Assembly: GCA_017408985.1 (NCBI GenBank)
Contig: JAFQTO010000024.1
Location: 24,399 to 48,398 of the forward strand
Reading direction: 5' to 3'
DNA: 24,000 nt
DNA from: Clostridia bacterium
Lineage (GTDB): Bacteria; Bacillota; Clostridia; Oscillospirales; Butyricicoccaceae
Position 1 is the stretch's first letter, and each line of letters opens with the position of its first letter. The position numbers were made by a program, and so were the translations under genes. The notes below the pieces were generated by a model. The model was not told the origin of the DNA. It saw only the letters and a list, made by a program, of their open reading frames with translations, and ran no database searches. This document shows, one piece after another, positions 4,328-24,000 of the stretch.

Positions 4328-4397
4328 AGTATGATTTTCCCCTTTTCGAGTTGCTGTGTGTAACAAAAATAGCTACTAAATAAAATATAAACGAAAA

Positions 4398-4437
4398 AGC
4401 TCCGACTTTCAAGCATTTCTGATTGAACATCGGAGCT
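4398..4437 (-). terminator. Intrinsic terminator downstream of the Fe-S gene pair
   Basis: Outer stem agctccga (4398-4405) / tcggagct (4430-4437) with inner pairing ttcaa/ttgaa. On the minus strand it is followed by uuuucguuua. Confidence 0.55.
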
Positions 4438-4575
4438 CTTTTGGTAGAAATAGGGGGATATTTTCGCACCTCTCAGCGTACTGCGCTTCGCAGCAGATGC
4501 AGCAGGGATTTATGGCATTTTAGCGCGTTTGACGGCTTCTGAGGGGCGTGATCACGACGTTTTTGCCGATCGGTC

Positions 4576-5697: not shown

Positions 5698-5698
5698 A

Positions 5699-6616: not shown

Positions 6617-6793
6617 TGTGTATACCCCTCTGTTTTCAGGATTATGTTTGTTTGTGTCGGTGTATTGCGCCACACCAATTATATTATAGAACTCTCACCC
6701 CGCCCGCACACACTCACAAAACAACGCAAAAGGTGGACTTTTCGGTGTTGAAAAGCCTGAAAAAGTGTGGTATATTTGACAAGAGGTGGAAAA

Positions 6794-7543
6794 ATGCTTT
6801 ATGAATGCAAAAACCCCGCACAGTTCATCGTCGGCGTGGAGCGGGTTGTGTGGGAGGGCGGAAGCTTTGAGGTCGAGCCGAGAGAATACTCCTCGCTGGC
6901 TTTTAGAATGGGCGGCACGTCGGCGGTAACGGTGGGCGAAAAAACCTACTGCGCAGGAAGCGGCGACATTCTGTACCTGCCTCAAGGACTGCCCTACCGA
7001 GCCGAATATACAGATACCGATATGCTGGCCATACATTTTGTCACCGCGTCCGATGACATCGAGCCCGAAATATACACCCCCCGCAACGCCGAGCAGATAT
7101 ACAAAGCCTTCATCGCCGCACACACCCTGTGGCAGAACAAAGCGCTGGGTCACGAGGCGCACGTGCTGTCTCAGCTCTATTATATCCTGGGCGAGCTGTG
7201 CGCCAACGAGCTGAAAAACCGTATGCCCGAGCATTTTATAAACGCACTGTCGTATATCAATACAAACTATCGGGATCAGGATCTGTCGGTGGAAAAGATC
7301 TGCAAAAACGCCGCCATAAGTCAGACCGATCTGCGTATGCTGTTCCGCAAATATTGCCAAAAAACACCGGTGCAGTATATCACCCGCCTGCGTCTGGAAT
7401 ACGCCCGCAATCTCATATCCTGCGGCGAGGCGGTGGAGACAGCCGCCGAAAAAAGCGGCTACAGCGACCCAAAATACTTTGCCCGCGTGGTCAAAAAACA
7501 CTATAACTGCACCCCTCGCGACCTGAAAACCTACGGCAAATAA
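6794..7543 (+). CDS. AraC-family transcriptional regulator (cupin-like N-domain plus double HTH)
   Basis: The C-terminus has AraC signatures TPVQYITRLRLEYARNLI and GYSDPKYFARVVKKHYNCTPRD. Start ATG at 6794 follows AGAGGTGG. It is divergent from the Fe-S gene pair. Confidence 0.9.
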   Translation: MLYECKNPAQFIVGVERVVWEGGSFEVEPREYSSLAFRMGGTSAVTVGEKTYCAGSGDILYLPQGLPYRAEYTDTDMLAIHFVTASDDIEPEIYTPRNAEQIYKAFIAAHTLWQNKALGHEAHVLSQLYYILGELCANELKNRMPEHFINALSYINTNYRDQDLSVEKICKNAAISQTDLRMLFRKYCQKTPVQYITRLRLEYARNLISCGEAVETAAEKSGYSDPKYFARVVKKHYNCTPRDLKTYGK

Positions 7544-7612
7544 TCTCATATGAGCTGCCCGCAAGGCTCCCCGTCCTGCCTCCCTTGCCTAAATAGGGCG
7601 CGACGCGTTAAG

Positions 7613-7889: not shown

Positions 7890-9386
7890 TTATTTTGCGT
7901 ATATTATTTCCTCATCCATAATCTTTAAAGCTTCTTGTTCAAGAAGATACGCTTCATAGCGTTTTTCGTTTGCCAGTTTTGCTAAATTGTTGATTTGCGC
8001 TTGAACTTGCTTATTCTTAAGCAACGGTATTTGAACCTGCTGAATATGCCAAGGTTCTATTGCATCAACAACTCCGCCGTAAGTAAAACGTTGAATTAGA
8101 GCTTTTCCATATTCAGAATTAAGAAAAATGTAAACATACCCGCAAATGGTATCATTGGATAATATTTGCATCATATTGTCGCTAATAGCCCAATTGAGAA
8201 AGTGCTTTGGGGGCATTATTACTTCGCCCAATGAACCACGAGCGGGTGTGAGAATAGAGTTTTCTTTAATACCAAGAGATCCTTCAAGCTGTTTTGAATG
8301 AGCTTTTCTAGACAAATATTTTTCACTTGAAGGGTCTAATTGTTTCATCTCTTTTCCACCTAAAAATTTAACGCCATAATCACTTTCTACATATACCCTT
8401 TTAAATCTACCAGGTAAAACAACATCGGAACTAATGCGACTGTCTCCAATGGTTGTAATTTCTGCTGCATGCTCTTTTAAATGTTCAATGATCGCATCAA
8501 CAATCGGCAAATGATAGGAAGCGTCAGCACGATAATTTAAATCGCTGAGTTTAACATTGAATGCATTTACAGAACTGGAATTTTCGATGTTTTTTTGCTC
8601 AAACTCGTTAATAGCAGGTAGTTTTAGTTCGGATATGAGCAATGCTGTCGCTTGGTCTATAAGATCATTCGATTCATCTCGCATTTTGTAAGAGTCGACA
8701 ATTAGGTTATGAATTCCAATTTTTATCTCTTTTGGTGCATTCGGAATAGGAACAGTAGCGAGGTGCTCCGATTCTATATGTGTTATAACGGCACCATAGC
8801 TGTTGGTAAGCAAGATTTTATTGCCTATTCTGCTTTTTAAGTATGTGTAAATGTATCCTTGATCAACCGAATTTCTGCACTCAATTCTTAAAAGATCATG
8901 ACTAAAAACCTTGTTATCTAAAGTGTCAGTTACATATGAAACTTTTCCTATGGTACCCGAACAAGTCATTAGGATTTGACCTTTCGAAACACGCAAGGCA
9001 TCTATATTTGTTTGAGTCAAGTGAGATATATAGCCATCTGGTATCGGTTTAATATCAACTATTGTAGAGGGTTGATATATAGGCAAGTCGGAATGTTCAA
9101 CCCATACTCGTTTAAATCTTGCACAAGTATAGGATGATGTTAACCCGTTCTCGCCACCAATCATAGTCAATGGGAATTTTGAGTTATTGATTATCTGCCG
9201 AGCCTGTTTTGCCTCTACATCAAAAACGCTTGCTTCAAGACGTTTGCCACGAGATATAACATCAGACAAAGACACGGAACACCATTTTATTGGAGATTCG
9301 TTAGCTTTGATATTAGAGGCATCTTGATCGTTATGCATATTCCTTAAGTTGTTGTTTACCACGACAAACCCTCCTGCTTTTTCCAT
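7890..9386 (-). CDS. HsdS-like DNA specificity subunit (two target-recognition domains)
   Basis: The protein repeats twice the layout of a variable TRD followed by a conserved helical spacer (…DQATALLISELKLP… and …INNLAKLANEKRYEAYLLEQEALKIM…). The start is uncertain: ATG 9386 has no RBS, whereas GTG 9362 follows AGGAGGG by 6 nt and overlaps the upstream stop. Confidence 0.85.
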   Translation of the reverse strand: MEKAGGFVVVNNNLRNMHNDQDASNIKANESPIKWCSVSLSDVISRGKRLEASVFDVEAKQARQIINNSKFPLTMIGGENGLTSSYTCARFKRVWVEHSDLPIYQPSTIVDIKPIPDGYISHLTQTNIDALRVSKGQILMTCSGTIGKVSYVTDTLDNKVFSHDLLRIECRNSVDQGYIYTYLKSRIGNKILLTNSYGAVITHIESEHLATVPIPNAPKEIKIGIHNLIVDSYKMRDESNDLIDQATALLISELKLPAINEFEQKNIENSSSVNAFNVKLSDLNYRADASYHLPIVDAIIEHLKEHAAEITTIGDSRISSDVVLPGRFKRVYVESDYGVKFLGGKEMKQLDPSSEKYLSRKAHSKQLEGSLGIKENSILTPARGSLGEVIMPPKHFLNWAISDNMMQILSNDTICGYVYIFLNSEYGKALIQRFTYGGVVDAIEPWHIQQVQIPLLKNKQVQAQINNLAKLANEKRYEAYLLEQEALKIMDEEIIYAK

Positions 9387-11377
9387 TCTGTAAAGATTGC
9401 AGGAATATCAGGCGTTTGATCATCTTCCACCTTCTTTTTCTGTTGGTGAGATATAGACTTATCTCCCTCTCCTGTTTCTCCAATTACAAGAACACTGTTG
9501 GTATCAGGTACAAGAATCTCATTGCCTTCTTTGTCACGTTTAAAGGTTGGGGTTCCACGTCTATCATGTCCAACCTTTTCAACCATAGCCATAAAGATAT
9601 TATAATCTGCCATTGTGCCCGCTTTTTCCTCAGTATCTTTCTGTTGCTGAGTTTTCTTTTGTAAGAAAAGAACCGAAGTTTGTGTGCCATTTCGAGGTTG
9701 GAAAGTATCGACGTGCAAATCAACACTACCGATAATTCGATGATTTTTTATCAACCATTCACGAATATATCCTAAACCGGGCGAACCAAGAATTGAATCA
9801 GGAAGAACTATACCCAATCTGCCGCCTTCAACAAGTAATTGTGTGCAACGCTCGATAAATAAGATTTCGGGAGGCACAGAGGATTGCAAACGTTCAGTCA
9901 TTGTCCAAACGCCTGTCTTTTTATTGTTTTCCCAAATGTGAGCAAGTTCAAATTGTTCTAAAATATTTTTATCTTTCACAGGGATTTTACTACCAAAAGG
10001 TGGGTTTGTAACAATAACATCAAAATATGCAATGGTATTATGATTTCTCAACTCACTTTTTTCAATACCGAGTGCCTCTGCTAATTTAGTGCGAAACTCA
10101 TCCGTCCATTCGTGAGGAGGTAAAAGCGAATTGGTTTGAAGAATATTACCACTACCATCATTGTTCATAACCATATTCATTTTGGTCGCTTTAACAAGGT
10201 CGGGATTGATATCGAATCCAAAATAATAGTGTGAAGCCATATCCGAAATACGATCGTTAAATGCGCGCATAGAGTCACTATCCCAATTCTTTCGATCACA
10301 GCCAATTTGTGCTGAAAATTCTCTTTCGAGATCTGCAATTACGTGTGTCATGGCAGTAACTAAGAAGCCACCTGTACCGCAAGAGCTATCCAATACTCTT
10401 TCGTCCATCTTGGGATTTATCATCTCAACAACCATCTTCATAACGTTACGAGGCGTAAAGAATTCACCTCTATCGCCACGGAGGTTGGCGCCAACAATTT
10501 CTTCGTATGCCTTCCCTTTAATGTCGATGTTAGTGTTAAGAAGGCTGTATTTCTGAAGTTCACTTACTATGTATGCCAAGCTTCTAGGTGCAAGTTTGAT
10601 TTCGTCATTGGAATCAAAAATTTTTCCGTGTTTTTTCTTTACTCTTTCAAAAATCTTCGATATACGCTTTTTAACGGTAAGCTGACCATCGGGATTTGAA
10701 CGTTCTTCTGATGTAGTGTAAAAATCAAGAGGATTAGGGATATTACGTTCATCTTCAATTTTGCAGAAAATAACCTTTAACAGTTCAAAAAACGCAGGCT
10801 GTTTTTGCAAACCATCATTTACGTGAATATGATTATGACAGGTCTTAAAAACGAACAATAAATTATCATCGTAAGCATTTTTTAATGATGTTCTTTTGGG
10901 GCGGTTAATATCATCCAAACTACCGTCAGCAGAGGGAATATCATTGTAATCCATAAAATCAATTTGTCCCTTATCATTGACAAATTTACGGAATACTTCT
11001 TTCTGCTTGCCGTTTGTCCACATACCCCACTCACAGTTAGGACAAGCAGACATATAAGATTTTAGTTGTTCAACACCATCTTTAGCATTACGTGCTTCAA
11101 CTGCCTCTTTCTTACACTCGATAATCAATTTGACGTTTTCTTGGGTTTGTTCGATGCAGTCTTTGTCAAAGATAACAATATCTGCACGCGGCTTACGTGA
11201 GCCGAGTTGCAGCGTATATTCGATCTTAATCTGTTTAGGCAGATACTTATGCTCGTTTACAAGTCTTTTTTCAATAGTTTGTCTTACATACTCTTCGGGT
11301 GTATCGTTACGGAATTTTCCATCGACATAGTCGCAGATTTTACCATCCGGTATAACAATCACTTTAGTTTCAGCCAT
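9356..11377 (-). CDS. Fused restriction endonuclease / N6-adenine DNA methyltransferase (BcgI-A-like RM subunit)
   Basis: The N-terminus has a PD-(D/E)xK-like motif as in HSDR_N domains (RADIVIF…VKLIIECKKE). SAM-binding motif I is LDSSCGTGGFL and catalytic motif IV is TNPPFGS. No helicase/translocase domain or separate hsdR is nearby. RBS AAGGAG precedes ATG 11377. Confidence 0.85.
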   Translation of the reverse strand: MAETKVIVIPDGKICDYVDGKFRNDTPEEYVRQTIEKRLVNEHKYLPKQIKIEYTLQLGSRKPRADIVIFDKDCIEQTQENVKLIIECKKEAVEARNAKDGVEQLKSYMSACPNCEWGMWTNGKQKEVFRKFVNDKGQIDFMDYNDIPSADGSLDDINRPKRTSLKNAYDDNLLFVFKTCHNHIHVNDGLQKQPAFFELLKVIFCKIEDERNIPNPLDFYTTSEERSNPDGQLTVKKRISKIFERVKKKHGKIFDSNDEIKLAPRSLAYIVSELQKYSLLNTNIDIKGKAYEEIVGANLRGDRGEFFTPRNVMKMVVEMINPKMDERVLDSSCGTGGFLVTAMTHVIADLEREFSAQIGCDRKNWDSDSMRAFNDRISDMASHYYFGFDINPDLVKATKMNMVMNNDGSGNILQTNSLLPPHEWTDEFRTKLAEALGIEKSELRNHNTIAYFDVIVTNPPFGSKIPVKDKNILEQFELAHIWENNKKTGVWTMTERLQSSVPPEILFIERCTQLLVEGGRLGIVLPDSILGSPGLGYIREWLIKNHRIIGSVDLHVDTFQPRNGTQTSVLFLQKKTQQQKDTEEKAGTMADYNIFMAMVEKVGHDRRGTPTFKRDKEGNEILVPDTNSVLVIGETGEGDKSISHQQKKKVEDDQTPDIPAIFTEWKKQEGLSW

Positions 11378-15102: not shown

Positions 15103-15177
15103 ACACAAGGAAGCCGGTGTTTCCCCTATCTTAAAGTAATTGCGTTTTGACGGTTGGCGGGTTCTTTGACGCTCTGA

Positions 15178-15211
15178 AAAAAAGACCGTGTCTTGCGACA
15201 CGGTCTTTTTT
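15178..15211. terminator. Bidirectional terminator, copy 2 of the identical 34-bp sequence
   Basis: The same 34 nt as 14880-14913, located 4 nt beyond the ilvE stop on the minus strand. Confidence 0.85.
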
Positions 15212-15215
15212 ATGA

Positions 15216-16289
15216 TTACTTACCCACTTTGACACGCCAACCCTTGGTATCGGGCAGACGGCCGGTCTGAATGCCGGTGATGGTATCGTAGAGCTTCAGA
15301 CTCAAAGGACCGGTCTCGCCGTTGCCAATGGTCATGACCTCATTCTGATAGCGCAACTTGCCCACCGGCGAGATAACGGCGGCAGTGCCGGTACCGAACA
15401 CCTCTTCCAAAGTGCCATCCTTCTGGGCCTGCAACAGCTCCTCAGCGGAGATCTTCCGCTCCTGGACCTCATAGCCCCAATCCTTGCACAGCTCGATGGT
15501 GGAGTTGCGGGTGATGCCGGGCAGGATAGAGCCGCTGAGCGCAGGTGTGACCACCTTGCCGGCGATCTTGAAGAAGATGTTCATAGCGCCCACCTCTTCA
15601 ATGTACTTGCGCTCCACGCCGTCCAGCCACAGGACCTGAGAATAGCCTGCGTCGTGGGCCTTCTGCTGGGCGATCAGGCTGGCGGCGTAGTTGCCGCCGG
15701 TCTTGGCAAAGCCGATGCCGCCACGGACTGCCCGGACATACTCATCCTCGATCCAGATGCCTACAGGCGCCAATCCGCTTTCGTAGTAAGCGCCGCTGGG
15801 GGAGAGGATCACCATAAACAGGTAGGTCTTTGAGGGCGCAACACCCAGGAACTCATCGGTGGCGATGATGAAGGGACGGATGTACAAAGATGTGCCGGGC
15901 TCGGTGGGAATCCAATCCCGATCTACATCCACCACTGCGCTGACAGCCTGCACAAAGTCCTCAACAGGCAGTTGGGGAATCACCAGACGGTCGTTGGTGT
16001 TGTTGGTCCGCTTTGCGTTCATATCGGGGCGGAACAGGAAGATATCGCCGTTGTCGCCCTTATAGGCCTTCAAGCCCTCGAACATCTCCTGGCCGTAGTG
16101 GTAGACCATGGCGGCAGGAGAAAGGCTGATGTTCTGGAAGGGCACGATCCGGGGATCATGCCAACCCTGGCCCTCTGTATAGTTCATTACGAACATGTGA
16201 TCTGTGAAGATCTTACCGAAGCCCAGCTTCTGGCCGGGGGCCGGCTTTTGCTTGGGGCTTGTGGTTTTGGTAATTTTAATATTCAGCAT
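15216..16289 (-). CDS. ilvE: Branched-chain amino acid aminotransferase
   Basis: 357 aa with class-IV aminotransferase/BCAT signatures (FGKIFTDHMF, MFEGLKAYK, AKTGGNYAASL). RBS AAGGGAGG. Confidence 0.92.
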   Translation of the reverse strand: MLNIKITKTTSPKQKPAPGQKLGFGKIFTDHMFVMNYTEGQGWHDPRIVPFQNISLSPAAMVYHYGQEMFEGLKAYKGDNGDIFLFRPDMNAKRTNNTNDRLVIPQLPVEDFVQAVSAVVDVDRDWIPTEPGTSLYIRPFIIATDEFLGVAPSKTYLFMVILSPSGAYYESGLAPVGIWIEDEYVRAVRGGIGFAKTGGNYAASLIAQQKAHDAGYSQVLWLDGVERKYIEEVGAMNIFFKIAGKVVTPALSGSILPGITRNSTIELCKDWGYEVQERKISAEELLQAQKDGTLEEVFGTGTAAVISPVGKLRYQNEVMTIGNGETGPLSLKLYDTITGIQTGRLPDTKGWRVKVGK

Positions 16290-16301
16290 AATATGCCTCC
16301 C

Positions 16302-16835
16302 TTAGAAATCGTAGCCGGTCTGCAGAGCCTGGCAGTTGATGTCGATGAGATTTGCCTTCTTGGCAGGGATAAAGGACTCCAGAGTCTGCCGGTTGCCTGC
16401 AAAAGGAACAGCACTACATTCCTTCATCAGCTTGCCTACCAACACCATGTTGGCCAATGTGGCAAATCCGGCATCCTTTGCCAGCTGGGTGGCCGGCAGG
16501 TAGAACGCCTCTACATCGGTACGCTCCACCTTCGCATCGATCAGCGTGGAATCCACGATGATCTTGCCACCGGGAACCACGGTATCCACATACTTCTGCA
16601 GAGAAGGCAGGTTCATGGCGATGAGCACATCCGGGGCAGTGACGATGGGACTGCCTACAGGGTCCTCCGACAGGATCACACTGCAGTTGGCTGTGCCGCC
16701 ACGCATCTCCGGTCCGTAGGAGGGCAACCAGGAGACCTGCAGATTCTCTGTCAGACCTTTGTATGCCAAAAACTTACCGGCAAACAGGACGCCCTGTCCA
16801 CCGAAGCCGGCGATGAGGATCTGTGTTGTTTTCAT
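16302..16835 (-). CDS. 2-oxoacid:ferredoxin oxidoreductase, gamma subunit
   Basis: N-terminal ILIAGFGGQGVLFAGK motif, ~177 aa. ATG 16835 overlaps the beta-subunit stop (TGATG); GTG 16838 is an alternative start. Confidence 0.88.
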   Translation of the reverse strand: MKTTQILIAGFGGQGVLFAGKFLAYKGLTENLQVSWLPSYGPEMRGGTANCSVILSEDPVGSPIVTAPDVLIAMNLPSLQKYVDTVVPGGKIIVDSTLIDAKVERTDVEAFYLPATQLAKDAGFATLANMVLVGKLMKECSAVPFAGNRQTLESFIPAKKANLIDINCQALQTGYDF

Positions 16836-17590
16836 CACTTTCCCTCCTTTGCCGCAGTGCGGTCCTTATAGACACCGATGGGATAGTAAGGAAGCATATC
16901 GCTTTCCACCCACTCCAGTGCCTTCTGGGGTGTCATGCCCCAGTTTGTGGGACAGGCGGAGACGACCTCTACCAGGGAGAAGCCCTTGCCGTCGATCTGG
17001 TTCTGGAAGGCCTTTTTGATGGCCTTCTTGGCCGCATTTACATTTTTCACATTGTTCACTGCTACCCGGGCGATGAACTCAGGACCCTCCAGAGTGGAGA
17101 GCATCTCACTGACCTTGATGGGCCAGCCGCAGTGGTTCACATCTCTGCCGTAGGGAGAGGTCTGGGTGACCTGCCCAGGCAGGGAGGTGGGCGCCATCTG
17201 ACCGCCGGTCATGCCGTAAATGGCATTGTTGACGAAGATCACAGTGATATTTTCGTTTCTTGCGGCGCTGTGGACCGTTTCTGCCATGCCGATGGAGGCC
17301 AGGTCGCCGTCACCCTGGTAGGTGAAGACCACGTTCTCCGGGCGGCAACGCTTAATGCCGGTGGCCACTGCCGGCGCTCTGCCGTGGGCGGCCTCGATCA
17401 TATCGCAGGCAAAATAGTCATATGCCATAACAGCGCAACCGACAGGCGCAACACCGATGGCTTTGCCCTTGATGCCCAGCTCGTCGATGACCTCAGCCAC
17501 CAGACGGTGGATAATACCGTGGGGACAGCCGGGGCAATAATGGAAAGGCGCATCTGTCAGTGCCTTGGGTTTTTTGAATACAACAGCCAT
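16835..17590 (-). CDS. 2-oxoacid:ferredoxin oxidoreductase, beta (TPP-binding) subunit
   Basis: [13 protein letters not shown] cluster/TPP region and [12 protein letters not shown] motif; 251 aa. Confidence 0.9.
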
Positions 17591-17592
17591 GA

Positions 17593-18651
17593 TTACTCTC
17601 CTTTCTGCGCCTTGCGGATGGCCGCCAGCACCTCATCGGGGCTGGGGATCATGCCGCCGCAGCGATTGCACAGGCTGACAGGCTTTTTACAGCCGGTAGC
17701 AAGCCGGATATCCTCGATCATTTGACCCATGTTCAGCTCAACGCTGATGAAGCTCTTTACCTTTTCCGCCGCGGCGGCAAGGGGCTTTGTGGGGAAGGGC
17801 CACAGGGTAATGGGACGGATCAGACCCACCTTGATACCCTCTGCCCGGGCGGCTACCACCGCGTTCTTTGCCACACGGGAGGCAATACCGAAGGCCACCA
17901 CACAGTACTCGGCGTCCTCCATCATGTACTCTTCCCACATGGCTTCCTTCTCTTCCACTGTTTTATACCGCTCATAGCGCTCGAAGTTCTTGACCTCCAG
18001 CTCATCGGGCTTTAAGTACAGAGAGTTGACGATGTTGTGCTTTCTCTCGCCGTTGGTGCCGGTGAGGGCCCAGGGCTTTTCGTAGGTCTCGATCTGCGCA
18101 TCCTCGAAGGAGATCGGCTCCATCATCTGACCGATGGTGCCGTCTGCCAGGATCATAGCGGTCATCAAATACTTATCGGCCAGATTGAAGCCCTTAATGG
18201 TCAGACTGGCCATTTCCTGCACAGAGGCCGGGGCCAGAACGATCATCCGGTAGTCACCGTGACCGCCACCCTTGGTGGCCTGGAAATAATCAGACTGAGA
18301 AGGCTGGATGCCACCCAGGCCGGGGCCGCCACGCTGGACGTTTACCACCAGGGCAGGCACATCGGAGCCGGCAATATAGCTCAAGCCCTCTGCCTTCAGG
18401 GAAATTCCGGGGCTGCTGGAGGAGGTCATGACCCGCATGCCTGCGGCGGCGGCGCCATAGACCATATTGATGGAAGCGACCTCACTTTCCGCCTGGAGGA
18501 ACACGCCGCCGATCTTGGGCATCTTCTTGGCCATATATGCGGCGATCTCCGTCTGGGGCGTGATGGGGTAGCCAAAATAGTGACGACAGCCGGCACGGAT
18601 GGCGGCTTCGGCAATGGCTTCATTGCCCTTCATTAATACTCTTTCTGCCAT
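17593..18651 (-). CDS. 2-oxoacid:ferredoxin oxidoreductase, alpha subunit (VorB-like size class)
   Basis: N-terminus [30 protein letters not shown] is typical of POR/KOR/VOR alpha subunits; 352 aa. Substrate class cannot be read from the sequence alone. Confidence 0.9.
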
Positions 18652-18663
18652 GTTTGCGCCTCC

Positions 18664-18870
18664 TTACTTTTCTACTGTGATGATACAGTCGGGGCACATG
18701 GTGGCGCAGAATGCGCAACCGATGCACTTATCCGGCTCTGCCATCACCGCAGGTGAATAGCCTTTTTTGTTGATCTTATCCGAGGCAATGGTCAGACAGC
18801 CCTTGGGGCAGGCATTGACGCACAGGCCACAGCCCTTGCAAAGATCGGTTTCGAATGTAAGTTTTGCCAT
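18664..18870 (-). CDS. 2-oxoacid:ferredoxin oxidoreductase, delta subunit (2x[4Fe-4S] ferredoxin)
   Basis: 68 aa with CKGCGLCVNACP and CIGCAFCATMCP. Confidence 0.9.
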   Translation of the reverse strand: MAKLTFETDLCKGCGLCVNACPKGCLTIASDKINKKGYSPAVMAEPDKCIGCAFCATMCPDCIITVEK

Positions 18871-18897
18871 TGGGAGTTCCTCCTCTTTACGGTTGGT

Positions 18898-19602
18898 TTA
18901 TCCCCACAGAGGCCGAGCCTTCGGCTTCTGAGACGGTAAATCAAAGTATTTTTCCTGCAGTTGCAGGGGGAAAACATTGTTAAGGGTATCCGCCAGGGTC
19001 GCCGCCACCGCTTTTTCAGCAGTGTGCAACCAAACCGGCAGTCCGGAAAGCGCGCTGAGCGCTTCTATGTAGGAAAGGGATTCCAGCACCGTTTCGGCGG
19101 TGGTCTCCGACGCCAGGTTGGTATTGTTGACGATGCAGGTGAAGCAAAGCCCACAGGCCTGCTCGATCTCACCCATCACCTCCAGGGCCTCCGCCGGTGT
19201 CCGGGTCAGAGGGCGGCTGGCATTGGCAACGAATACCATGCGGTAGTTATTCTCTTCCTTGATAAAAGGGACATATCTGCCCAGGGCATAGGCGCCCCGG
19301 TCATCTCCGCCGATATCCATGACGGCGAAGCTGTTTTTATCCTGGACCAGCCGGTAGGCCTCCGCCGGAAGGGCCGGCAGGTCTACGTTGGAATTGGTAA
19401 ATTGAGATGTGATCAGATCAATACCGGCCTCCTTCAGCGCCTTGGCGCTGTCAGCGGTACGGAAATAGGGATTGACGATGTCCAGGTCAGCGATACAGAC
19501 CTTTTTCCCCTCCGACGCCAAATGCAGGGCGTAATTGACTGCGATATTGGTCTTGCCGCTACCGTAATGGCCGGCAAACAGGGTCAGACGTTTATGTTCC
19601 AT
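18898..19602 (-). CDS. P-loop NTPase of unknown role (SIMIBI-like)
   Basis: Walker A motif FAGHYGSGKTN followed by VCIADLDIVNPYF and a hydrophobic-strand-Asp motif AVMDIGGDD. Start ATG 19602 lies 1 nt after the upstream stop. Confidence 0.6.
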   Translation of the reverse strand: MEHKRLTLFAGHYGSGKTNIAVNYALHLASEGKKVCIADLDIVNPYFRTADSAKALKEAGIDLITSQFTNSNVDLPALPAEAYRLVQDKNSFAVMDIGGDDRGAYALGRYVPFIKEENNYRMVFVANASRPLTRTPAEALEVMGEIEQACGLCFTCIVNNTNLASETTAETVLESLSYIEALSALSGLPVWLHTAEKAVAATLADTLNNVFPLQLQEKYFDLPSQKPKARPLWG

Positions 19603-19603
19603 A

Positions 19604-20554
19604 TTACTCCTTGCCGGGGATCGCCCAGGGGTTATCCAGCGTATATTTCACCGTGTCGATGATAGCTTGCTTCATTTCCGCCGTCACTGCCATATCGCCC
19701 AGGTTTTGGGTGGAGGAATGGCGCAGATGGGACGGTACGGAATCCAGGTTGATCTGGGTCACAGCATTGCCGGTGAACTGGGCGTACCAGGCATAGCCGA
19801 TCATCAAACAGCCGTAGTCATTCAAATGGGTGTGATCCCGATACAACTGAACCTCGGGGATATTCAGCTCTTTAAGGGCATACATCAGCGGCGTGCCGGA
19901 GGTCACGTGACCTGCAAACATGGGGTCATCCAGGACCGTATCGATGGCAGTTTGGTTGGTCTGGGTCAGCTGTGCCAGCTGATCCACCTGGGATGCCTCC
20001 ACAGGGTTGTCGTACAGCACGGGATCGGTGGAATTGAACCATGTGGAATGCCACCAGTAGGTATGGGGCGTCTGTACACAGCCATCCACATATTCCGTAA
20101 TATATTTCCGGGCATTCTCATTCATGTTGTTTTCTGTGTCGCCGTTGCCGGCCTGCAGGACCACCACATCCCAGGCCTGGTCCATAAGACCCACATCCAT
20201 GATCACGCCCTTGGTGATCTTCCATCTGCCGTCGGTGTTGCAGTAGTAGTCATAGGCGGCTTCGTTGTTTTTCATAAAATCCACATGCATGGACATGCTG
20301 CAGCCGCTATGGTACATGATGCCAAGGACCACCTTCTTATCGGGCATTTGATCCGTGAAGGCAGTATGGAGCATTTGAAAGGCATTGACAGAACGGCTGG
20401 AGCCCAGGATCATGATCTTCAGTACCTCTGCCTCCTCCGGACTTTCCGTTGCCTGGGTGGTGGCAGTGGTCTGCGACGGCGCTTCATTGCCACAGCCGAC
20501 AAAAATGCCGACCAGCAGGCACAGACACAGGATGTAGAGCATATATCTTTTCAT
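19604..20554 (-). CDS. Lipoprotein, DUF4886/SGNH-hydrolase-like
   Basis: Signal peptide with lipobox (LLVGIFVGC|GNE), a low-complexity linker, then IMILGSSRS…WDVVVLQAG…YRDHTHLNDYGCLMIGYAWY. This resembles SGNH-fold DUF4886 proteins; the family assignment is from memory only. Confidence 0.55.
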   Translation of the reverse strand: MKRYMLYILCLCLLVGIFVGCGNEAPSQTTATTQATESPEEAEVLKIMILGSSRSVNAFQMLHTAFTDQMPDKKVVLGIMYHSGCSMSMHVDFMKNNEAAYDYYCNTDGRWKITKGVIMDVGLMDQAWDVVVLQAGNGDTENNMNENARKYITEYVDGCVQTPHTYWWHSTWFNSTDPVLYDNPVEASQVDQLAQLTQTNQTAIDTVLDDPMFAGHVTSGTPLMYALKELNIPEVQLYRDHTHLNDYGCLMIGYAWYAQFTGNAVTQINLDSVPSHLRHSSTQNLGDMAVTAEMKQAIIDTVKYTLDNPWAIPGKE

Positions 20555-20565
20555 ATGTATTCTCC

Positions 20566-22857
20566 TTACAGCTTTTTGCGAATAATCTTGCCGCTGGTTG
20601 TCTTGGGCAGACTCTCTCTGAATTCCACGATCCGGGGATACTTATAGGGCGCAGTCCGGGACTTGACATAGTCCTGGATCTGTTTTTTCAGCTCGTCGGT
20701 GCCCTTAAAGTCCTTTACCAGCACGATGGAAGCCTTGACCACCTGGCCACGGATCTCATCGGGGGCGGCGGAGACACCGCACTCCAGCACGTAGGGAAGC
20801 TCCATGATCACGTTTTCGATCTCGAACGGTCCGATCCGGTAACCGGAGGACTTGATCACGTCGTCGGCACGGCCCACATACCAGTAGAAGCCGTCCTCAT
20901 CCTTCCAGGCCAGGTCGCCGGTATGGTAGAAGCCGTCACACCAGGTCTCGGCAGTCACATCGGGACTTCCCTCGTAAGCAAAGCTGAGGCCGCAGGGCAG
21001 GCCCTTGGAGATGTCGATACAGATCTCGCCGGTCTCGCCACGGTCCACGATCTTGCCTTCGGAATTCAACAGCTGAACGTTATACAGCGGTACCGGCTTG
21101 CCCATAGAGCCAAGCTTGTGACTGCTGCCAAGGAGATTGCCGATGATCAAGGTGCTCTCGGACTGACCGAAGCCCTCCATGATATCCAAACCGGTGGCGT
21201 TCTGGAACTGGCGGTAGACCTCCGGGTTCAGCGCCTCGCCGGCAGTGGAGGCATGCTCGATGGTGCTCAGATCAAAACGGCTCAGGTCCTGCTTGGCCAG
21301 CATCCGGTACATGGTGGGCGGCGCGCAGAAGGTGGTGATGCCGTACTGCTTGAACATGGGCAGGATCTTCTCCGCGTCGAAGCGGTCGAAATCGTAGACA
21401 AACAGGCCTGCCTCACAGAGCCACTGGCCGTAGAGCTTGCCCCACATGGACTTTGCCCAGCCGGTATCGGAGATGGTCAGGTGCAGACCGTCGGGGCGGA
21501 CACAGTGCCAGTATTTTGCTGTGATAAAATGACCCAGGGGATACTTATAATTGTGAGCCGCCAGCTTGGGATAGCCGGAAGTGCCGGAGGTGAAGAACAT
21601 CAGCATGGGGTCAGAGCCACAGGGCGCATCGGCTGTTCTTGCAAAGTGACTGCTGTACATGGAATATTCTTCGTCAAAATCATGCCAGCCTTCCCGACTG
21701 CCTCCCACCAGGATCTTGTGGGCAAGTCCGGGATACTGGGCGGCGGCCTCATCCACCGCAGTGGCGGTGTCACCGTCAGCGGTACACAGGATCGCCCGGA
21801 CATCTGCCGCCTGGAACCGGTAGGCAAAGTCCTTGACAAGGAGCTGGTTGGTAGCAGGGATCGCCACAGCGCCCAGCTTGTGCAGGCCCAAAATCGCAAA
21901 CCAGAACTGGTAATGGCGCTTGAGCACCAGCATCACCCGGTCGCCACGCTTGATGCCCATGGCCTTAAAGTAGTTTGCCGCCCGGGCAGACTCCTTTTTC
22001 ATATCCTGGAAGGTGAAGGTGCGTTCCGTGCCGTCCAGACTCACATGAAGCATGGCGCGGCGGTCCGGCTTCTTTCTGCCCAGGGCATCGATGATGTCGA
22101 AGGCGAAATTGAACTTATCTTCGTTTTTGAAGTCAATGGCAGTGATCCTGCCCTGCGCATCTTCTGTGGGAATGATAAAGTTGTGGTAAATGCGTTGCTC
22201 CGGATCCACACCGGGCAGTTTTGCAGAGGGTGTTGCCACTGCCGCCGCCTGCTCACCCTCACGGGCGGCAGAGTTTCTCAGTACGATGGCATAGAAAGCG
22301 CAATCCTCCCCTTCCGCGGCAACCATGCCGTGGGGCGTGGCAGAATCATAATAGATACAGTCGCCGGGGTGCAGGATCTCCGTATGACCGCCGATCTGGA
22401 TCTTCATATGACCCCGGATCACGATGTCGCACTCCTGGCCCTCATGGGTGGTCAGCTCCATATCCTCAAACTCGGCGCCCTCCCGGTAGGCAAGTTCCAT
22501 GTAAAGAGGCAGAGCGATACGATTGCGGAAATCAGCCGCCAGGTTATATCCCACCATATGGTGCGCTTCCTCAATGCGCTGTCCCTCACCCTTACGGGTC
22601 AGGGCATAGGAGCGCAGTTTGGGGCTGTGGCCTTCCAGAAGGTCGCTGAAGTCAACGCCGAAGATCAGCGCGCAATGGTACAAAAAGGCAATGCTCATAT
22701 TGCGGGAACCGTTTTCGTACTGGGTATACTCCTGCACAGAAACACTGGTGCGCTGAGCCATCTCCTCCACGGTGAAGCCGCTGATCTGCCGCAGCTCCCG
22801 GATACGCCCTGCAACCTCCCGTATCTTGTAGTCCATGCCTGTCATTGTCTGTTCCAT
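20566..22857 (-). CDS. Fusion protein: XRE-type HTH + cupin (PuuR-like regulator module) + AMP-forming acyl-CoA synthetase
   Basis: One uninterrupted 763-aa ORF. aa ~10-70 form an HTH (IRELRQISGFTVEEMAQRTSVSVQEYTQYENGSRN). aa ~120-195 form a cupin (HEGQECDIVIRGHMKIQIGGHTEILHPGDCIYYDSATPHG). aa ~215-763 form an adenylate-forming ligase (FFTSGTSGYPK, YHTGDLAW, GRADDVIKSSGYRIGPFEIE, PKTTSGKIIRKKL). RBS AAGAGG precedes ATG 22857. Confidence 0.85.
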   Translation of the reverse strand: MEQTMTGMDYKIREVAGRIRELRQISGFTVEEMAQRTSVSVQEYTQYENGSRNMSIAFLYHCALIFGVDFSDLLEGHSPKLRSYALTRKGEGQRIEEAHHMVGYNLAADFRNRIALPLYMELAYREGAEFEDMELTTHEGQECDIVIRGHMKIQIGGHTEILHPGDCIYYDSATPHGMVAAEGEDCAFYAIVLRNSAAREGEQAAAVATPSAKLPGVDPEQRIYHNFIIPTEDAQGRITAIDFKNEDKFNFAFDIIDALGRKKPDRRAMLHVSLDGTERTFTFQDMKKESARAANYFKAMGIKRGDRVMLVLKRHYQFWFAILGLHKLGAVAIPATNQLLVKDFAYRFQAADVRAILCTADGDTATAVDEAAAQYPGLAHKILVGGSREGWHDFDEEYSMYSSHFARTADAPCGSDPMLMFFTSGTSGYPKLAAHNYKYPLGHFITAKYWHCVRPDGLHLTISDTGWAKSMWGKLYGQWLCEAGLFVYDFDRFDAEKILPMFKQYGITTFCAPPTMYRMLAKQDLSRFDLSTIEHASTAGEALNPEVYRQFQNATGLDIMEGFGQSESTLIIGNLLGSSHKLGSMGKPVPLYNVQLLNSEGKIVDRGETGEICIDISKGLPCGLSFAYEGSPDVTAETWCDGFYHTGDLAWKDEDGFYWYVGRADDVIKSSGYRIGPFEIENVIMELPYVLECGVSAAPDEIRGQVVKASIVLVKDFKGTDELKKQIQDYVKSRTAPYKYPRIVEFRESLPKTTSGKIIRKKL

Positions 22858-22859
22858 AA

Positions 22860-23158
22860 TTACCTCTTAAATCAAAACAAAAAGCTCGTCTCAAAGGATA
22901 GTTTCCTTGAGACGAGCTGTTAAAAAGCAACCCGCGGTACCACTCAAATTGCAGTTGCCTTACGGCTCACTGCCACTCATCGAGCGCAGACACGCTCTAA
23001 GCATTGACGCAGCTGACACGTGGAGGTTCTACCGGCAAATTGCTTTCTTCCTCCCGGCTCCGGAGGGACACTCACACTGCTTCTGCCATGGCTTGCACCA
23101 ACCGCCAATTCTCTGAGGCAGGGTCTGCAGGGGAGATTCTCCATCACAGCCTTTATGA
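22860..23158 (-). promoter_or_regulatory. T-box riboswitch leader (tRNA-sensing antitermination)
   Basis: Read on the minus strand. Stem I spans 23151-23056, with K-turn GGC-UGU-GA-UGGAG … CUCCG-GA-GCC, AG bulge AGAGA and distal loop GGUUGGUGCAA. The T-box sequence AAUUUGAGUGGUACCGCGG lies at 22950-22932. The antiterminator (UUUGAG/CUCAAG and GCGGG/CUCGU around the bulge UGGUACC) is mutually exclusive with the terminator 5-prime arm. Confidence 0.85.
22871..22918 (-). terminator. Leader (attenuator) terminator of the T-box
   Basis: On the minus strand: AGCUCGUCUCAAGGA-loop-UCCUUUGAGACGAGCU followed by UUUUUGUUUUGAUUU. It ends ~10 nt before the RBS of the fusion gene. Confidence 0.85.
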
Positions 23159-23164
23159 TAGGAA

Positions 23165-23193
23165 ATCATATCATTTTTATATGAAGTTGTCAA
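23165..23193 (-). promoter_or_regulatory. Sigma-A promoter of the T-box operon
   Basis: On the minus strand: TTGACA (23188-23193), a 17-nt spacer, then TATGAT (23165-23170). The palindrome TATGAT-N5-ATCATA (23154-23170) overlaps the -10 and the predicted transcription start. Confidence 0.75.
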
Positions 23194-23247: not shown

Positions 23248-24000
23248 TTACAGCTTATTGCGCATGATCTTGCCACTGATGGTCTTGGGCAGTTCCGTGC
23301 GGAACTCCACGATCCGGGGGTACTTATAAGGCGCAGTGTGCTGTTTGACGTAATTCTGGATCTCCTTTTTCAGCTCGTCGGTGCCCTCTGTGCCGGGAAC
23401 CAGCACGATACAGGCCTTGACCACCTGGCCACGGACTTCGTCCGGAGCGGCGCAGACACCGCACTCCAGCACGTAGGGCAGTTCCATAATGGTGGATTCG
23501 ATCTCGAAGGGTCCGATCCGGTAGCCCGAGGACTTGATCACATCGTCGGCACGGCCTACATACCAGTAGTAGCCATCCTCATCCCGCCATGCCACATCGC
23601 CGGTATGATACATACCGTCATGCCATGCCGCATCGGTGGCTTCCTTGTTCAGATAGTAGCCCAGGAACACACCGCAGGTAGGATTGGGATCGGTACGGAT
23701 AACGATCTCGCCGTTAATACCGTCTTCCACCGGGTTGCCCTCGGCATCCACGATATCGATGCCGTAGCCGGGGACAGGCTTACCCATGGCGCCGGGCTTG
23801 ATCTCGGTGCCAAAGAGATTCGCAATGCCAAGGGTCATCTCAGTCTGACCGAAGCCCTCATGAATCCGCAGGCCGGTCGCCTTTTCAAACTGATAGAACA
23901 CCTCAGGGTTCAGCGCCTCACCTGCCGTAGTAGCATGGTGGATCGTAGAAAGATCATACTTGCTCAAATCTTGCTTGATCAGCATCCGGTACATGGTAGG
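23248..24000 (-). CDS. AMP-forming acyl-CoA synthetase, C-terminal part (5-prime end lies beyond the window)
   Basis: The C-terminal ~250 aa are highly similar to the ligase part of the fusion protein (YHTGDVAW, GRADDVIKSSGYRIGPFEIE, IMELPYVLECGV, TAPYKYPRIVEF, LPKTISGKIMRNKL). The ORF is still open at the window edge. Confidence 0.85.
   Translation of the reverse strand, partial: PTMYRMLIKQDLSKYDLSTIHHATTAGEALNPEVFYQFEKATGLRIHEGFGQTEMTLGIANLFGTEIKPGAMGKPVPGYGIDIVDAEGNPVEDGINGEIVIRTDPNPTCGVFLGYYLNKEATDAAWHDGMYHTGDVAWRDEDGYYWYVGRADDVIKSSGYRIGPFEIESTIMELPYVLECGVCAAPDEVRGQVVKACIVLVPGTEGTDELKKEIQNYVKQHTAPYKYPRIVEFRTELPKTISGKIMRNKL

Follow-up and report, generated by a model that had tools for sequence, protein, structure and literature searches.

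The reductive carboxylation of isobutyrate, isovalerate and 2-methylbutyrate by rumen bacteria, e.g., Megasphaera (Peptostreptococcus) elsdenii and Prevotella ruminicola, was reportedly described by Allison and co-workers in the 1960s-70s, and an anabolic 2-oxoisovalerate:ferredoxin oxidoreductase (VOR, VorABC) of Methanothermobacter is said to have been characterized by Tersteegen et al. in 1997. Homologous por/vor genes of other gut anaerobes have been reported as catabolic. In Bacillus subtilis and other Firmicutes, the ilv-leu operon is under a Leu-specific T-box, and T-boxes are induced by uncharged tRNA. Ligases of the ANL type activate acids at the expense of ATP, which is converted to AMP and PPi. 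Among them, MbcS of S. aureus accepts 2-methylbutyrate and isobutyrate, not isovalerate (PMC10026030), and Macs of M. acetivorans has a preference for 2-methylbutyrate (PMC10455477). Carboxylation of isovalerate to leucine has also been mentioned (PMC7356843). A dedicated tRNA-regulated cluster for branched-acid carboxylation was not found in our literature searches.

Here we analysed a 24,000-nucleotide stretch of DNA from a Clostridia bacterium (hereafter the window), which probably carries a T-box-controlled salvage operon leading from branched short-chain acids to branched-chain amino acids. The original prediction, namely a tRNA-induced route from acid through acyl-CoA and 2-oxoacid to amino acid, gained support from a Val specifier, a branched-acid-type ligase, a VorB-type alpha subunit and the swapping of aminating genes among relatives, while several of its parts were corrected. 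As predicted, eight minus-strand open reading frames span positions 15216-22857, and all eight gene assignments agreed with Pfam and NCBIfam. The features are listed below.

15177..15205 (-), intrinsic terminator of the operon: GACCGUGUC-GCAA-GACACGGUC followed by U7 (-22.5 kcal/mol, z = -8.0)
15216..16289 (-), IlvE, branched-chain amino-acid aminotransferase, class IV (NF009897, 496.7 bits, cut-off 307; TIGR01123, 409, cut-off 250)
16302..16838 (-), oxidoreductase (OFOR) gamma subunit (Pfam POR, 115 bits)
16835..17590 (-), OFOR beta subunit, TPP-binding (TPP_enzyme_C)
17593..18651 (-), OFOR alpha subunit, VorB type (POR_N and PFOR_II; NCBIfam NF005507 VorB, 548.8 bits, cut-off 399)
18664..18870 (-), OFOR delta subunit, 2x[4Fe-4S] ferredoxin-like (Pfam Fer4 families)
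18898..19602 (-), SIMIBI-class P-loop NTPase (motifs GHYGSGKT and DIGGD; weak ParA/CbiA and ApbC/ArsA matches confined to the P-loop region)
19604..20554 (-), DUF4886 lipoprotein gene (Pfam, 84.5 bits; lipobox in the N-terminus MKRYMLYILCLCLLVGIFVGC)
20566..22857 (-), ACS2, 763-aa fusion (Pfam: XRE-type HTH, HTH_3, residues 18-76; Cupin_2, 135-191; AMP-forming acyl-CoA synthetase, 247-763)
22873..22918 (-), T-box terminator hairpin and U tract (hairpin 22918-22883, -23.3 kcal/mol, z = -7.0)
22905..23156 (-), T-box leader comprising Stem I, Stem II/III and an antiterminator (cmscan RF00230, 76.8 bits against an Rfam gathering score of 93, E = 7.6e-17)
23067..23069 (-), specifier codon GUC (Val), in the register of the cmscan alignment; followed by C, then by the CUCC stem
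23165..23193 (-), sigma-70-type promoter of the Val T-box leader (TTGACA-17-TGnTATGAT, extended TG, 11/12 matches)
23248..24000 (-), 3' part of ACS1 (paralogous HTH-cupin-acyl-CoA synthetase), truncated at the edge of the window, with the AMP-binding C-terminal motif at its end

The chemistry proposed for these genes (branched acyl-CoA, CO2 and reduced ferredoxin to 2-oxoacid, followed by amination) is shared with VOR and with rumen carboxylation, the order delta-alpha-beta-gamma is one that we take to match vorCBA, and Megasphaera-type contigs have the same block of P-loop NTPase and four subunit genes as the window. Unlike in those systems, the oxidoreductase shares its cluster here with ligases dedicated to acid activation and with an aminating enzyme, under amino-acid-specific T-boxes, with the P-loop NTPase as a fifth gene.

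The eight genes had been proposed to be bracketed by a T-box leader and a terminator; both elements were found, and the leader has its own promoter, which homologous leaders carry as well. Intergenic gaps from the synthetase to ilvE are 11, 1, 27, 12, 2, -4 and 12 nt, the 3' terminator consists of a hairpin (15205-15184) and a T run, and the single internal terminator-like site, in the gamma gene (16804-16777), is a weak one with a poor U tract (z = -2.2). We infer that the eight genes are co-transcribed. Within the leader, the T-box sequence AAUUUGAGUGGUACCGCGGG lies at 22950-22931 with its UGGU bulge at 22942-22939, which fits discriminator A73. The antiterminator overlaps, through its 3' arm, with the 5' arm of the terminator hairpin, and compensatory changes were observed in 25 of 56 predicted leader pairs across 38 homologous leaders. 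The predicted specifier is a valine codon, and approximately 40 of 43 homologous leaders likewise read Val (GUC in 31 parsed and 3 by eye, GUA in 6). Its register is fixed by synonymous switches among the Val leaders and by AUC and CUG/CUC at the same place in paralogous leaders. The base 3' of the window specifier is C where a purine is usual, which counts against the reading, as does the leader score below the Rfam gathering score; the closest relative, L081, has an identical GUC+C.

We compared the window with 82 related Oscillospiraceae (Faecousia-type) loci. This neighbourhood survey supported the salvage idea and led us to revise the P-loop NTPase, DUF4886 and unit-size parts of the original prediction. 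The block of eight genes is real, but the comparison places it within a larger module that has three T-boxes and includes ACS1 and, in relatives, a divergent operon under a Leu T-box. ACS1, the second synthetase paralogue 5' of the T-box, had been overlooked; it shares 83-95% identity with the upstream synthetase of relatives in most loci (73-78% in a divergent subgroup), which at full length is a 755-762-aa HTH-cupin-synthetase fusion. An Ile T-box (class A) lies 5' of ACS1 in relatives, with the specifier AUC in 46 of 47 cases, and the divergent Leu T-box (CUG or CUC in 41 of 43) precedes a LeuA-like gene and a third synthetase. Approximately one third of relatives lack the Val T-box and have the whole block under the Ile T-box. 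In genomes with both T-boxes, starvation for Ile or Leu alone should leave the Val T-box before the single oxidoreductase shut, a point that counts against the salvage reading. As in the ilv-leu operon, uncharged branched-chain tRNA would act through transcription antitermination to induce supply genes for the corresponding amino acid. The window genes, however, are proposed to act in salvage from fermentation acids rather than in the acetolactate/isopropylmalate pathway, and three specifiers (Ile, Val and Leu) are spread over one gene neighbourhood.

ACS2 had been described as an AMP-forming acyl-CoA synthetase, which holds for its catalytic part but missed the N-terminal HTH_3 and Cupin_2 module. 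Among NCBIfam models MbcS scores highest, with 416 bits, far below the equivalog cut-off of 850, and an alignment of the catalytic part to Macs (PDB 3ETC) shows 51% identity over 514 residues. ACS2 shares the AMP-forming ANL fold with MbcS and Macs, and the substrates documented for these two enzymes, 2-methylbutyrate and isobutyrate, are those that routes to Ile and Val would call for. It differs from both in the XRE-HTH and cupin module of approximately 245 residues and in occurring as a tandem pair of paralogues with different T-boxes. We propose that ACS2 is a CoA ligase for isobutyrate, i.e., for a branched short-chain acid. The range of MbcS, isobutyrate and 2-methylbutyrate but not isovalerate, matches the layout of the module, in which the two MbcS-like paralogues are under the Ile and Val T-boxes and the synthetase under the Leu T-box belongs to a different family. 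The proposed product, in contrast to that of MbcS, would feed amino-acid rather than lipid synthesis.

The slot 3' of gamma bears on this difference. Of 64 loci, 23 have IlvE there and 29 a Leu/Val-type ELFV amino-acid dehydrogenase, and 7 more have a divergent IlvE-like gene within 1.7 kb; this interchange points to an amino acid as the end product. The ligases might instead supply branched acyl-CoA primers for branched-chain fatty acids when branched-chain amino acids are scarce, as MbcS does in S. aureus, with the oxidoreductase and IlvE only equilibrating pools. MbcS, the top NCBIfam match, has a documented role in making primers from exogenous 2-methylbutyrate and isobutyrate (PMC10026030), and T-box control would be compatible, as the same scarcity also starves primer synthesis. 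Nevertheless, primer supply needs the ligase alone, whereas the oxidoreductase is invariably linked to it and 59 of 64 loci also have a linked aminating enzyme, whose non-orthologous replacement argues for selection on amino-acid formation. Furthermore, three amino-acid-specific T-boxes are paired with three ligases. We therefore regard primer supply as the sole purpose of the operon as unlikely, and the two roles are not mutually exclusive.

The oxidoreductase had been placed in a VorB-like class, and its alpha subunit indeed passes the NCBIfam cut-off of VorB alone, with the KorA (255 versus 579), PorA and archaeal VOR alpha models below theirs. No specific NCBIfam model was passed by beta, gamma or delta, whose top scores, all below cut-off, were to 2-oxoglutarate-type models. 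Among solved structures, the nearest to alpha are subunits of 2-oxoglutarate- or general 2-oxoacid-type enzymes (1yd7, 8ys5 and 6n2n). As OFORs, IlvE and ELFV dehydrogenases catalyse reversible reactions, the cluster could in principle run in the catabolic direction, with IlvE deaminating Val, Ile and Leu, the OFOR oxidatively decarboxylating the products, and branched acids being excreted (Stickland-type or fermentative degradation). Related four-subunit por/vor genes of Clostridium sporogenes and Parabacteroides are reportedly needed for branched short-chain acid production, and the closest solved alpha subunits come from enzymes studied in the oxidative direction. However, the T-box opens the operon at uncharged tRNA-Val, i.e., at valine scarcity, and the first gene encodes an AMP-forming ligase that produces acyl-CoA at the cost of ATP, whereas catabolism would need the reverse; phosphotransacylase/kinase, CoA transferase and ADP-forming synthetase are all absent from the cluster. 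Since induction by uncharged tRNA and the AMP-forming ligase both point to synthesis rather than energy-yielding catabolism, we consider a catabolic operon quite improbable. That the OFOR acts on another 2-oxoacid (2-oxoglutarate, pyruvate or 2-oxobutyrate) within a general 2-oxoacid/amino-acid node, as the sub-cut-off scores of beta, gamma and delta and the KOR-like best PDB matches might suggest, is very improbable, given that alpha passes VorB and fails KorA and PorA, and that the block is under Val and Ile T-boxes and linked to branched-acid-type ligases and IlvE, with IlvD in a distant contig.

Two genes had been regarded as not fitting the pathway. For the P-loop NTPase this no longer holds: it adjoins delta, at 71-86% identity, in every related locus with sequence reaching that far, and homologues at 37% identity precede delta-alpha-beta-gamma in Megasphaera-type and other distant contigs, where the blocks adjoin an aminotransferase, IlvD or IlvE-like gene. 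It is thus a conserved accessory of this OFOR type, and the family comprises at least 673 clusters (50% identity, E <= 1e-30). The protein scores below the Pfam ParA/CbiA gathering thresholds, and Foldseek searches with its AF2 model (pLDDT 79.5) returned generic SIMIBI folds only and no close structural relative, with ATPase-type HypB and SRP GTPases at TM ~0.5. With Mrp/NBP35/ApbC, ATPase-type HypB, CooC and NifH it shares the Walker A P-loop, the DxxG-like DIGGD, a similar size and the SIMIBI fold. Those NTPases assemble or energise metalloenzymes, and the window gene adjoins that of an Fe-S enzyme; one guess is that the NTPase has a role in OFOR assembly or activation. In contrast to them, its family is distinct, with no CxxC and a single invariant cysteine.

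The DUF4886 gene does lie outside the pathway, as had been thought. No tblastn match was found in any of the 82 related loci, where the gap between ACS2 and the P-loop NTPase is 2-247 nt, and homologues (62-65% identity) are located in an rSAM/SPASM-EamA-DUF4886-AIM24 context. Comparison with L081 mapped the insertion boundaries, and the gene is an unrelated insertion outside the conserved module. The suggestion that its product captures acids outside the cell is unsupported for an insertion unseen in the related loci surveyed.

According to the salvage reading, uncharged tRNA-Val would pair with the leader at the specifier (GUC) and at the bulge (UGGU) and stabilise the antiterminator, and transcription starting from the promoter at 23193 would then continue as far as the terminator (15205-15177). 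ACS2, as an MbcS/Macs-like AMP-forming ligase, would form acyl-CoA from free isobutyrate, probably also from related branched C4/C5 acids, and the VorB-type OFOR would reductively carboxylate this acyl-CoA with reduced ferredoxin and CO2 to 2-oxoisovalerate, 2-oxo-3-methylvalerate or 2-oxoisocaproate. IlvE would transaminate the 2-oxoacid to the amino acid, and ACS1 under the Ile T-box of relatives may provide a route from 2-methylbutyrate to Ile. All substrates and the direction of flux are those that we infer from sequence. If this reading holds, the operon would provide a gene-level and regulatory basis for an activity of the rumen and gut known since the 1960s.

The original prediction placed eight minus-strand genes at 15216-22857, and all eight open reading frames were recovered there with intergenic gaps of -4 to 27 nt, their assignments upheld by Pfam and NCBIfam. 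The operon comprises the following features:

15216-16289, minus strand: ilvE (Pfam and NCBIfam)
16302-16838, minus strand: gamma subunit of a four-subunit 2-oxoacid:ferredoxin oxidoreductase (OFOR; Pfam POR)
16835-17590, minus strand: OFOR beta subunit (Pfam, TPP-binding)
17593-18651, minus strand: OFOR alpha subunit (Pfam POR_N/PFOR_II; NCBIfam VorB)
18664-18870, minus strand: OFOR delta subunit (Pfam, 2x[4Fe-4S])
18898-19602, minus strand: P-loop NTPase (weak ParA/CbiA matches)
19604-20554, minus strand: DUF4886 protein (SGNH-like; Pfam PF16227)
20566-22857, minus strand: ACS2, an acyl-CoA ligase of 763 aa (Pfam and NCBIfam)
15205-15184 followed by U7, minus strand: operon-end intrinsic terminator, a clean hairpin downstream of ilvE
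22905-23156, minus strand: T-box leader (RF00230, 76.8 bits, E = 7.6e-17)
23193-23165, minus strand: leader promoter, a near-consensus sequence match with an extended -10
22918-22883, minus strand: strong T-box terminator hairpin

The predicted bracketing by a T-box leader and a terminator was therefore borne out. A search for internal terminators that might split the cluster returned a single weak candidate within gamma (16804-16777, minus strand; z = -2.2) with a poor U tract; it lies over the codons of a GGQG motif and was judged to be probably a product of chance or coding constraint. We infer that the eight genes are co-transcribed.

Elsewhere in the window, a restriction-modification module occupies 7890-11377 on the minus strand, where a 673-aa fusion of HSDR_N_2, N6_Mtase and an Eco57I-type methylase overlaps a 498-aa Methylase_S specificity protein. 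On the plus strand, a 124-aa reading frame (403-777) lies ahead of the gene for a BlaR1-type M56 peptidase sensor (767-2491), whose BlaI-like repressor it may encode. Three reading frames of 289-387 aa at 4576-5739 (minus), 5612-6751 (plus) or 5699-6673 (minus), and 6695-7564 (minus) had no Pfam match.

Related loci were collected through the P-loop protein, whose close relatives in Oscillospiraceae number in the thousands and are all annotated as hypothetical protein. Searching a single genome for each species yielded 80 loci with P-loop proteins 71-83% identical to the window's, mostly from Faecousia and other Oscillospiraceae MAGs of animal and human gut, and two closer contigs (86%) were added by exact look-up; the window proteins were then mapped by tblastn onto all 82 loci (numbered with the prefix L). 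Wherever the sequence reaches, the order ACS1, ACS2, P-loop, delta, alpha, beta, gamma is kept. ACS1 corresponds to the gene cut by the window edge. The part inside the window, with its end at 23248 a short way upstream of the T-box promoter, encodes the C-terminal portion of a second, ACS2-like ligase; in most relatives ACS1 is 83-95% identical to this partial gene (73-78% in a divergent subgroup).

DUF4886 had no tblastn match in any of the 82 loci, in which ACS2 and the P-loop gene are 2-247 nt apart. Alignment of the window with its closest relative, L081, runs to the ACS2 stop, breaks off over DUF4886 and resumes at the P-loop start. The window protein clearly belongs to PF16227 (84.5 bits, cut-off 26.7), a domain carried by all 120 listed DUF4886 homologues, and homologues 62-65% identical occur in a different context, radical-SAM/SPASM-EamA-DUF4886-AIM24. 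Taken together, its absence from related loci, the bracketing alignment and the location of its homologues identify the gene, on comparative grounds, as an insertion seen in no surveyed related locus. Its GC3 (0.71) shows no compositional anomaly relative to its neighbours (0.62-0.76), and composition thus neither supports nor dates the insertion. Its status as a passenger was accordingly confirmed, while the suggestion that it captures acids outside the cell gained no support.

The gene following gamma was tallied in the 64 loci that include gamma. An ilvE gene whose product is 85-92% identical to the window's occupies this position in 23 of them, and 29 (about 45%; e.g., L081:13313-14344) carry instead a gene for a 343-aa ELFV-family amino-acid dehydrogenase. 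A divergent IlvE-like gene lies 0.8-1.7 kb away in seven loci, and five have neither. The dehydrogenase falls in the Leu/Val/Phe/Trp branch; at 360 bits it matches the NCBIfam Trp dehydrogenase model best, below cut-off but far above its scores for Glu dehydrogenase models. The window's class IV IlvE passed both NF009897 (496.7, cut-off 307) and TIGR01123 (409.4, cut-off 250). Because one slot is filled by either of two unrelated enzymes, each converting between a 2-oxoacid and the corresponding amino acid, the module would appear to concern this step and not the acyl-CoA alone, which we regard as the strongest genomic argument of this analysis.

The four adjacent OFOR genes were compared with 2-oxoisovalerate:ferredoxin oxidoreductase (VOR, EC 1.2.7.7) and encode a complete domain set in Pfam: POR_N/PFOR_II in alpha, a TPP-binding domain in beta, POR in gamma and 2x[4Fe-4S] in delta. 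Alpha passed the VorB model NF005507 (548.8 bits, cut-off 399) and failed those for KorA (NF007206; 255, cut-off 579), PorA (96, cut-off 550), archaeal VOR alpha (NF006232; 72, cut-off 646) and IOR. The VorB-like assignment therefore holds for alpha but does not extend to beta, gamma and delta, for which no specific NCBIfam model was passed, the best beta match being of 2-oxoglutarate type (124 vs 364). At L008:16746-20487, about 2.4 kb downstream of ilvE, a distant second ligase gene (25% identity) precedes genes for OFOR-like alpha and gamma subunits (22-31%), a set that may represent an aromatic (indolepyruvate-type) counterpart.

The AMP-forming synthetase of the original prediction is present, with AMP-binding and AMP-binding_C domains, but the whole protein proved to be a fusion: an XRE-type HTH (residues 18-76) and a Cupin_2 domain (135-191) precede the AMP-forming ligase (247-763; Pfam). 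The HTH-cupin module (ACS2 residues 1-245), also present in ACS1 of all relatives, has one solved relative, the HTH_3/cupin regulator 1y9q (E = 1e-3), and the fusion may be a DNA-binding, ligand- or substrate-sensing, self-regulating 'trigger enzyme'. S. aureus MbcS was the best-scoring NCBIfam model for ACS1 as well as ACS2, well below cut-off in each case; ACS2 scored 415.9 against the MbcS equivalog cut-off of 850 and is therefore a relative, not an orthologue. Its catalytic part is 51% identical over 514 residues (615.8 bits) to Macs of Methanosarcina acetivorans (PDB 3ETC), an enzyme that prefers 2-methylbutyrate (PMC10455477). MbcS itself accepts 2-methylbutyrate and isobutyrate but acts only poorly on isovalerate (PMC10026030). 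Beyond ACS1, outside the window, about 43 loci including L081 and L082 share a divergent operon with its own T-box, in which the ligase belongs to a different, PRK12583-like family, is fused to an AP_endonuc_2 TIM barrel and lies beside a LeuA-like enzyme; in L062 these are the T-box at 4414-4647, the LeuA-like gene at 2969-4378 and the 836-aa fusion at 462-2972, all on the minus strand. The LeuA-like protein has HMGL-like and LeuA_dimer domains and scored below all LeuA equivalog cut-offs.

The window's T-box is invisible at the Rfam default threshold, as its 76.8 bits fall below the RF00230 gathering threshold of 93, and its full-length match was recovered through an E-value search; the cmscan alignment spans model positions 1-219. 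In L062 the orthologous leader scored 82.0 bits and its paralogues 100.9 and 115.5. We regard the sub-threshold score as a reflection of specifier-loop divergence, not as absence of a T-box. Stem I contains the K-turn (GA motif), specifier loop, AG bulge (AGAGA) and distal loop GGUUGGUG, which are kept across 38 homologous leaders. The T-box sequence AAUUUGAGUGGUACCGCGGG, with its UGGN bulge, occupies 22950-22931; antiterminator and terminator are mutually exclusive, since the 3' arm of the former shares nucleotides with the 5' arm of the latter. Compensatory changes altering both sides were found in 25 of 56 predicted pairs across 38 sequences of this leader class, and Stem II pairs alternate between AU and GC in 15-17 of the 38 leaders.

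Related loci carry up to three T-boxes. Their specifier register (the codon, one base, then a 4-bp stem closing the specifier loop) was taken from the covariance-model alignment and checked by a K-turn/stem-anchored parse, by eye and by alignment, with the following result:

Specifier codons in the three T-box classes
Class A, upstream of ACS1: AUC (Ile) in 46 of 47 leaders
Class B (the window's), between ACS1 and ACS2: GUC in 31 parsed leaders plus 3 read by eye, of 43
Class B, same position: GUA in 6 of 43
Class C, divergent, upstream of the LeuA-like gene and the TIM-barrel-ACS fusion: CUG in 39 of 43
Class C, same position: CUC in 2 of 43

The window's specifier is GUC (23069-23067), as in L081. 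Two of the three leftover class B leaders read AUC, both in loci that have one ACS gene, of ACS1 type; the last has a 2-nt insertion. In the Val T-box at L045:7288-7588, a 2-nt insertion directly after the specifier (GUCUAUCUCC) displaces the codon relative to the closing stem. Since synonymous switches (GUC/GUA and CUG/CUC) occur at a fixed position, the register can be considered fixed. Alternative readings as UGU (Cys), UCC or AGU (Ser), or GUG were rejected, as homologues alternate only between GUC and GUA at a single position. The Cys and Ser readings are further excluded by the UGGU bulge, found in all leaders, which fits discriminator A73 as in tRNA-Val, tRNA-Ile and tRNA-Leu; tRNA-Cys has U73 and tRNA-Ser G73. 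Of the 61 loci with sequence across the ACS1-ACS2 junction, 40 have the Val T-box; the remaining 21 have -3 to 270 nt between the two genes, which places the whole block under the Ile T-box.

Each specifier is predicted to name the amino acid served: Ile for ACS1, Val for ACS2 and the OFOR, and Leu for the third ligase with the LeuA-like enzyme. MbcS/Macs-like paralogues under Ile and Val T-boxes would fit routes from 2-methylbutyrate to Ile and from isobutyrate to Val, and the third ligase is predicted to prefer isovalerate. In the proposed mechanism, uncharged tRNA-Val would stabilise the antiterminator, ACS2 would activate isobutyrate while converting ATP to AMP, the VorB-type enzyme would reductively carboxylate the acyl-CoA with reduced ferredoxin, and IlvE (in other species the amino-acid dehydrogenase) would aminate the product. 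ACS1 with its Ile T-box and the divergent Leu-T-box operon would extend the same logic to Ile and Leu. Substrates and flux direction are deduced from gene content and regulation, the anabolic direction from induction by amino-acid shortage together with an AMP-forming ligase; the anabolic reading of tRNA control put forward originally agrees with a Val specifier in 40 of 43 class B leaders (GUC or GUA). The ligases could also supply primers for membrane branched-chain fatty acids, as with MbcS, and such a role may coexist with amino-acid salvage, but it leaves the constant linkage to an aminating enzyme unexplained. A catabolic operon for branched-chain amino-acid degradation seems very improbable, as it would need neither shortage induction nor an AMP-forming ligase. 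For the salvage reading a design problem remains: where both T-boxes are present, shortage of Ile or Leu alone should leave the Val T-box before the block's only OFOR closed.

The P-loop NTPase had been considered an unexplained passenger. It is a SIMIBI-class protein with the motifs GHYGSGKT (Walker A) and DIGGD, and its family comprises at least 673 clusters (50% identity) at E <= 1e-30, mostly of 215-235 aa, and 1859 clusters at E <= 1e-10. Matches to ArsA, ApbC, MinD and ParA are weak and confined to the P-loop region. An AF2 model (pLDDT 79.5) retrieved only generic SIMIBI matches in Foldseek (SRP GTPases and ATPase-type HypB, TM about 0.5). Assignment as a ParA/MinD ATPase was not supported: the Walker A motif is not the deviant KGGxGK and both Pfam matches are below gathering score (ParA 24.5, cut-off 27.1; CbiA 20.8, cut-off 25.4). 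An Mrp/NBP35/ApbC-type Fe-S carrier and a NifH-like electron-transfer ATPase were rejected, as the family has no CxxC and a single invariant cysteine, Cys150.

The association with the OFOR block extends beyond the close relatives. Following one distant branch of the family turned up four more contexts, each different from the others, in which the gene immediately 5' of a delta-alpha-beta-gamma block of this type encodes a homologue of the NTPase. In the first, on Megasphaera-type contigs, identity to the window's proteins is 37% for the P-loop protein and 56% for alpha, and no T-box was found upstream of the block; Megasphaera elsdenii was among the first organisms shown to make valine from isobutyrate. 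One distant lineage has an IS110-family transposase between the P-loop gene and the OFOR genes (L091:2428-3672, L092:1356-2600 and L093:1154-2398), with delta not called in L092 and L093. Another distant contig has IlvD after the block, and another an IlvE-like gene nearby. Because homologues precede the same block in such distant contexts, the NTPase is, by gene order, a conserved fifth gene and companion of this OFOR class, and no longer a passenger. That it is a working partner of the OFOR and not a housekeeping neighbour, providing NTP-dependent assembly, activation or gating so that the enzyme can work in the direction of reductive carboxylation, as a 2-oxoacid synthase, is a speculative and rather unlikely proposal. 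If true, it would imply a five-component 'synthase-type' OFOR spread across Firmicutes and, together with the three T-boxes and the HTH-cupin-ligases, that Faecousia-type gut bacteria depend on cross-fed branched acids for branched-chain amino acids.

Physiological work has shown for some sixty years that rumen and gut anaerobes turn branched fermentation acids into Val, Ile and Leu by reductive carboxylation, which explains the need of cellulolytic rumen bacteria for branched-chain volatile fatty acids. Neither this chemistry nor the enzyme families nor T-box control as a mechanism is new in itself. No description of a T-box-linked VOR/ACS cluster was found in the searchable literature, which takes in few subscription journals and regulon databases, and the three-T-box module, the HTH-cupin-ligase fusions, the exchange of IlvE for a dehydrogenase and the NTPase companion appear to be undescribed there. 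The locus and its roughly 80 relatives may offer a dedicated, regulated gene cluster for this route, in which the T-box specifiers give direct substrate predictions for three ligases, and they draw attention to a P-loop NTPase family, so far uncharacterised, whose association with this OFOR class is conserved. Furthermore, the combination of T-box, HTH-cupin ligase, P-loop protein, VorB-type OFOR and IlvE or amino-acid dehydrogenase provides a marker set for metagenomes, which would be relevant to cross-feeding of branched acids in gut and rumen and to the reading of faecal branched short-chain acid levels.
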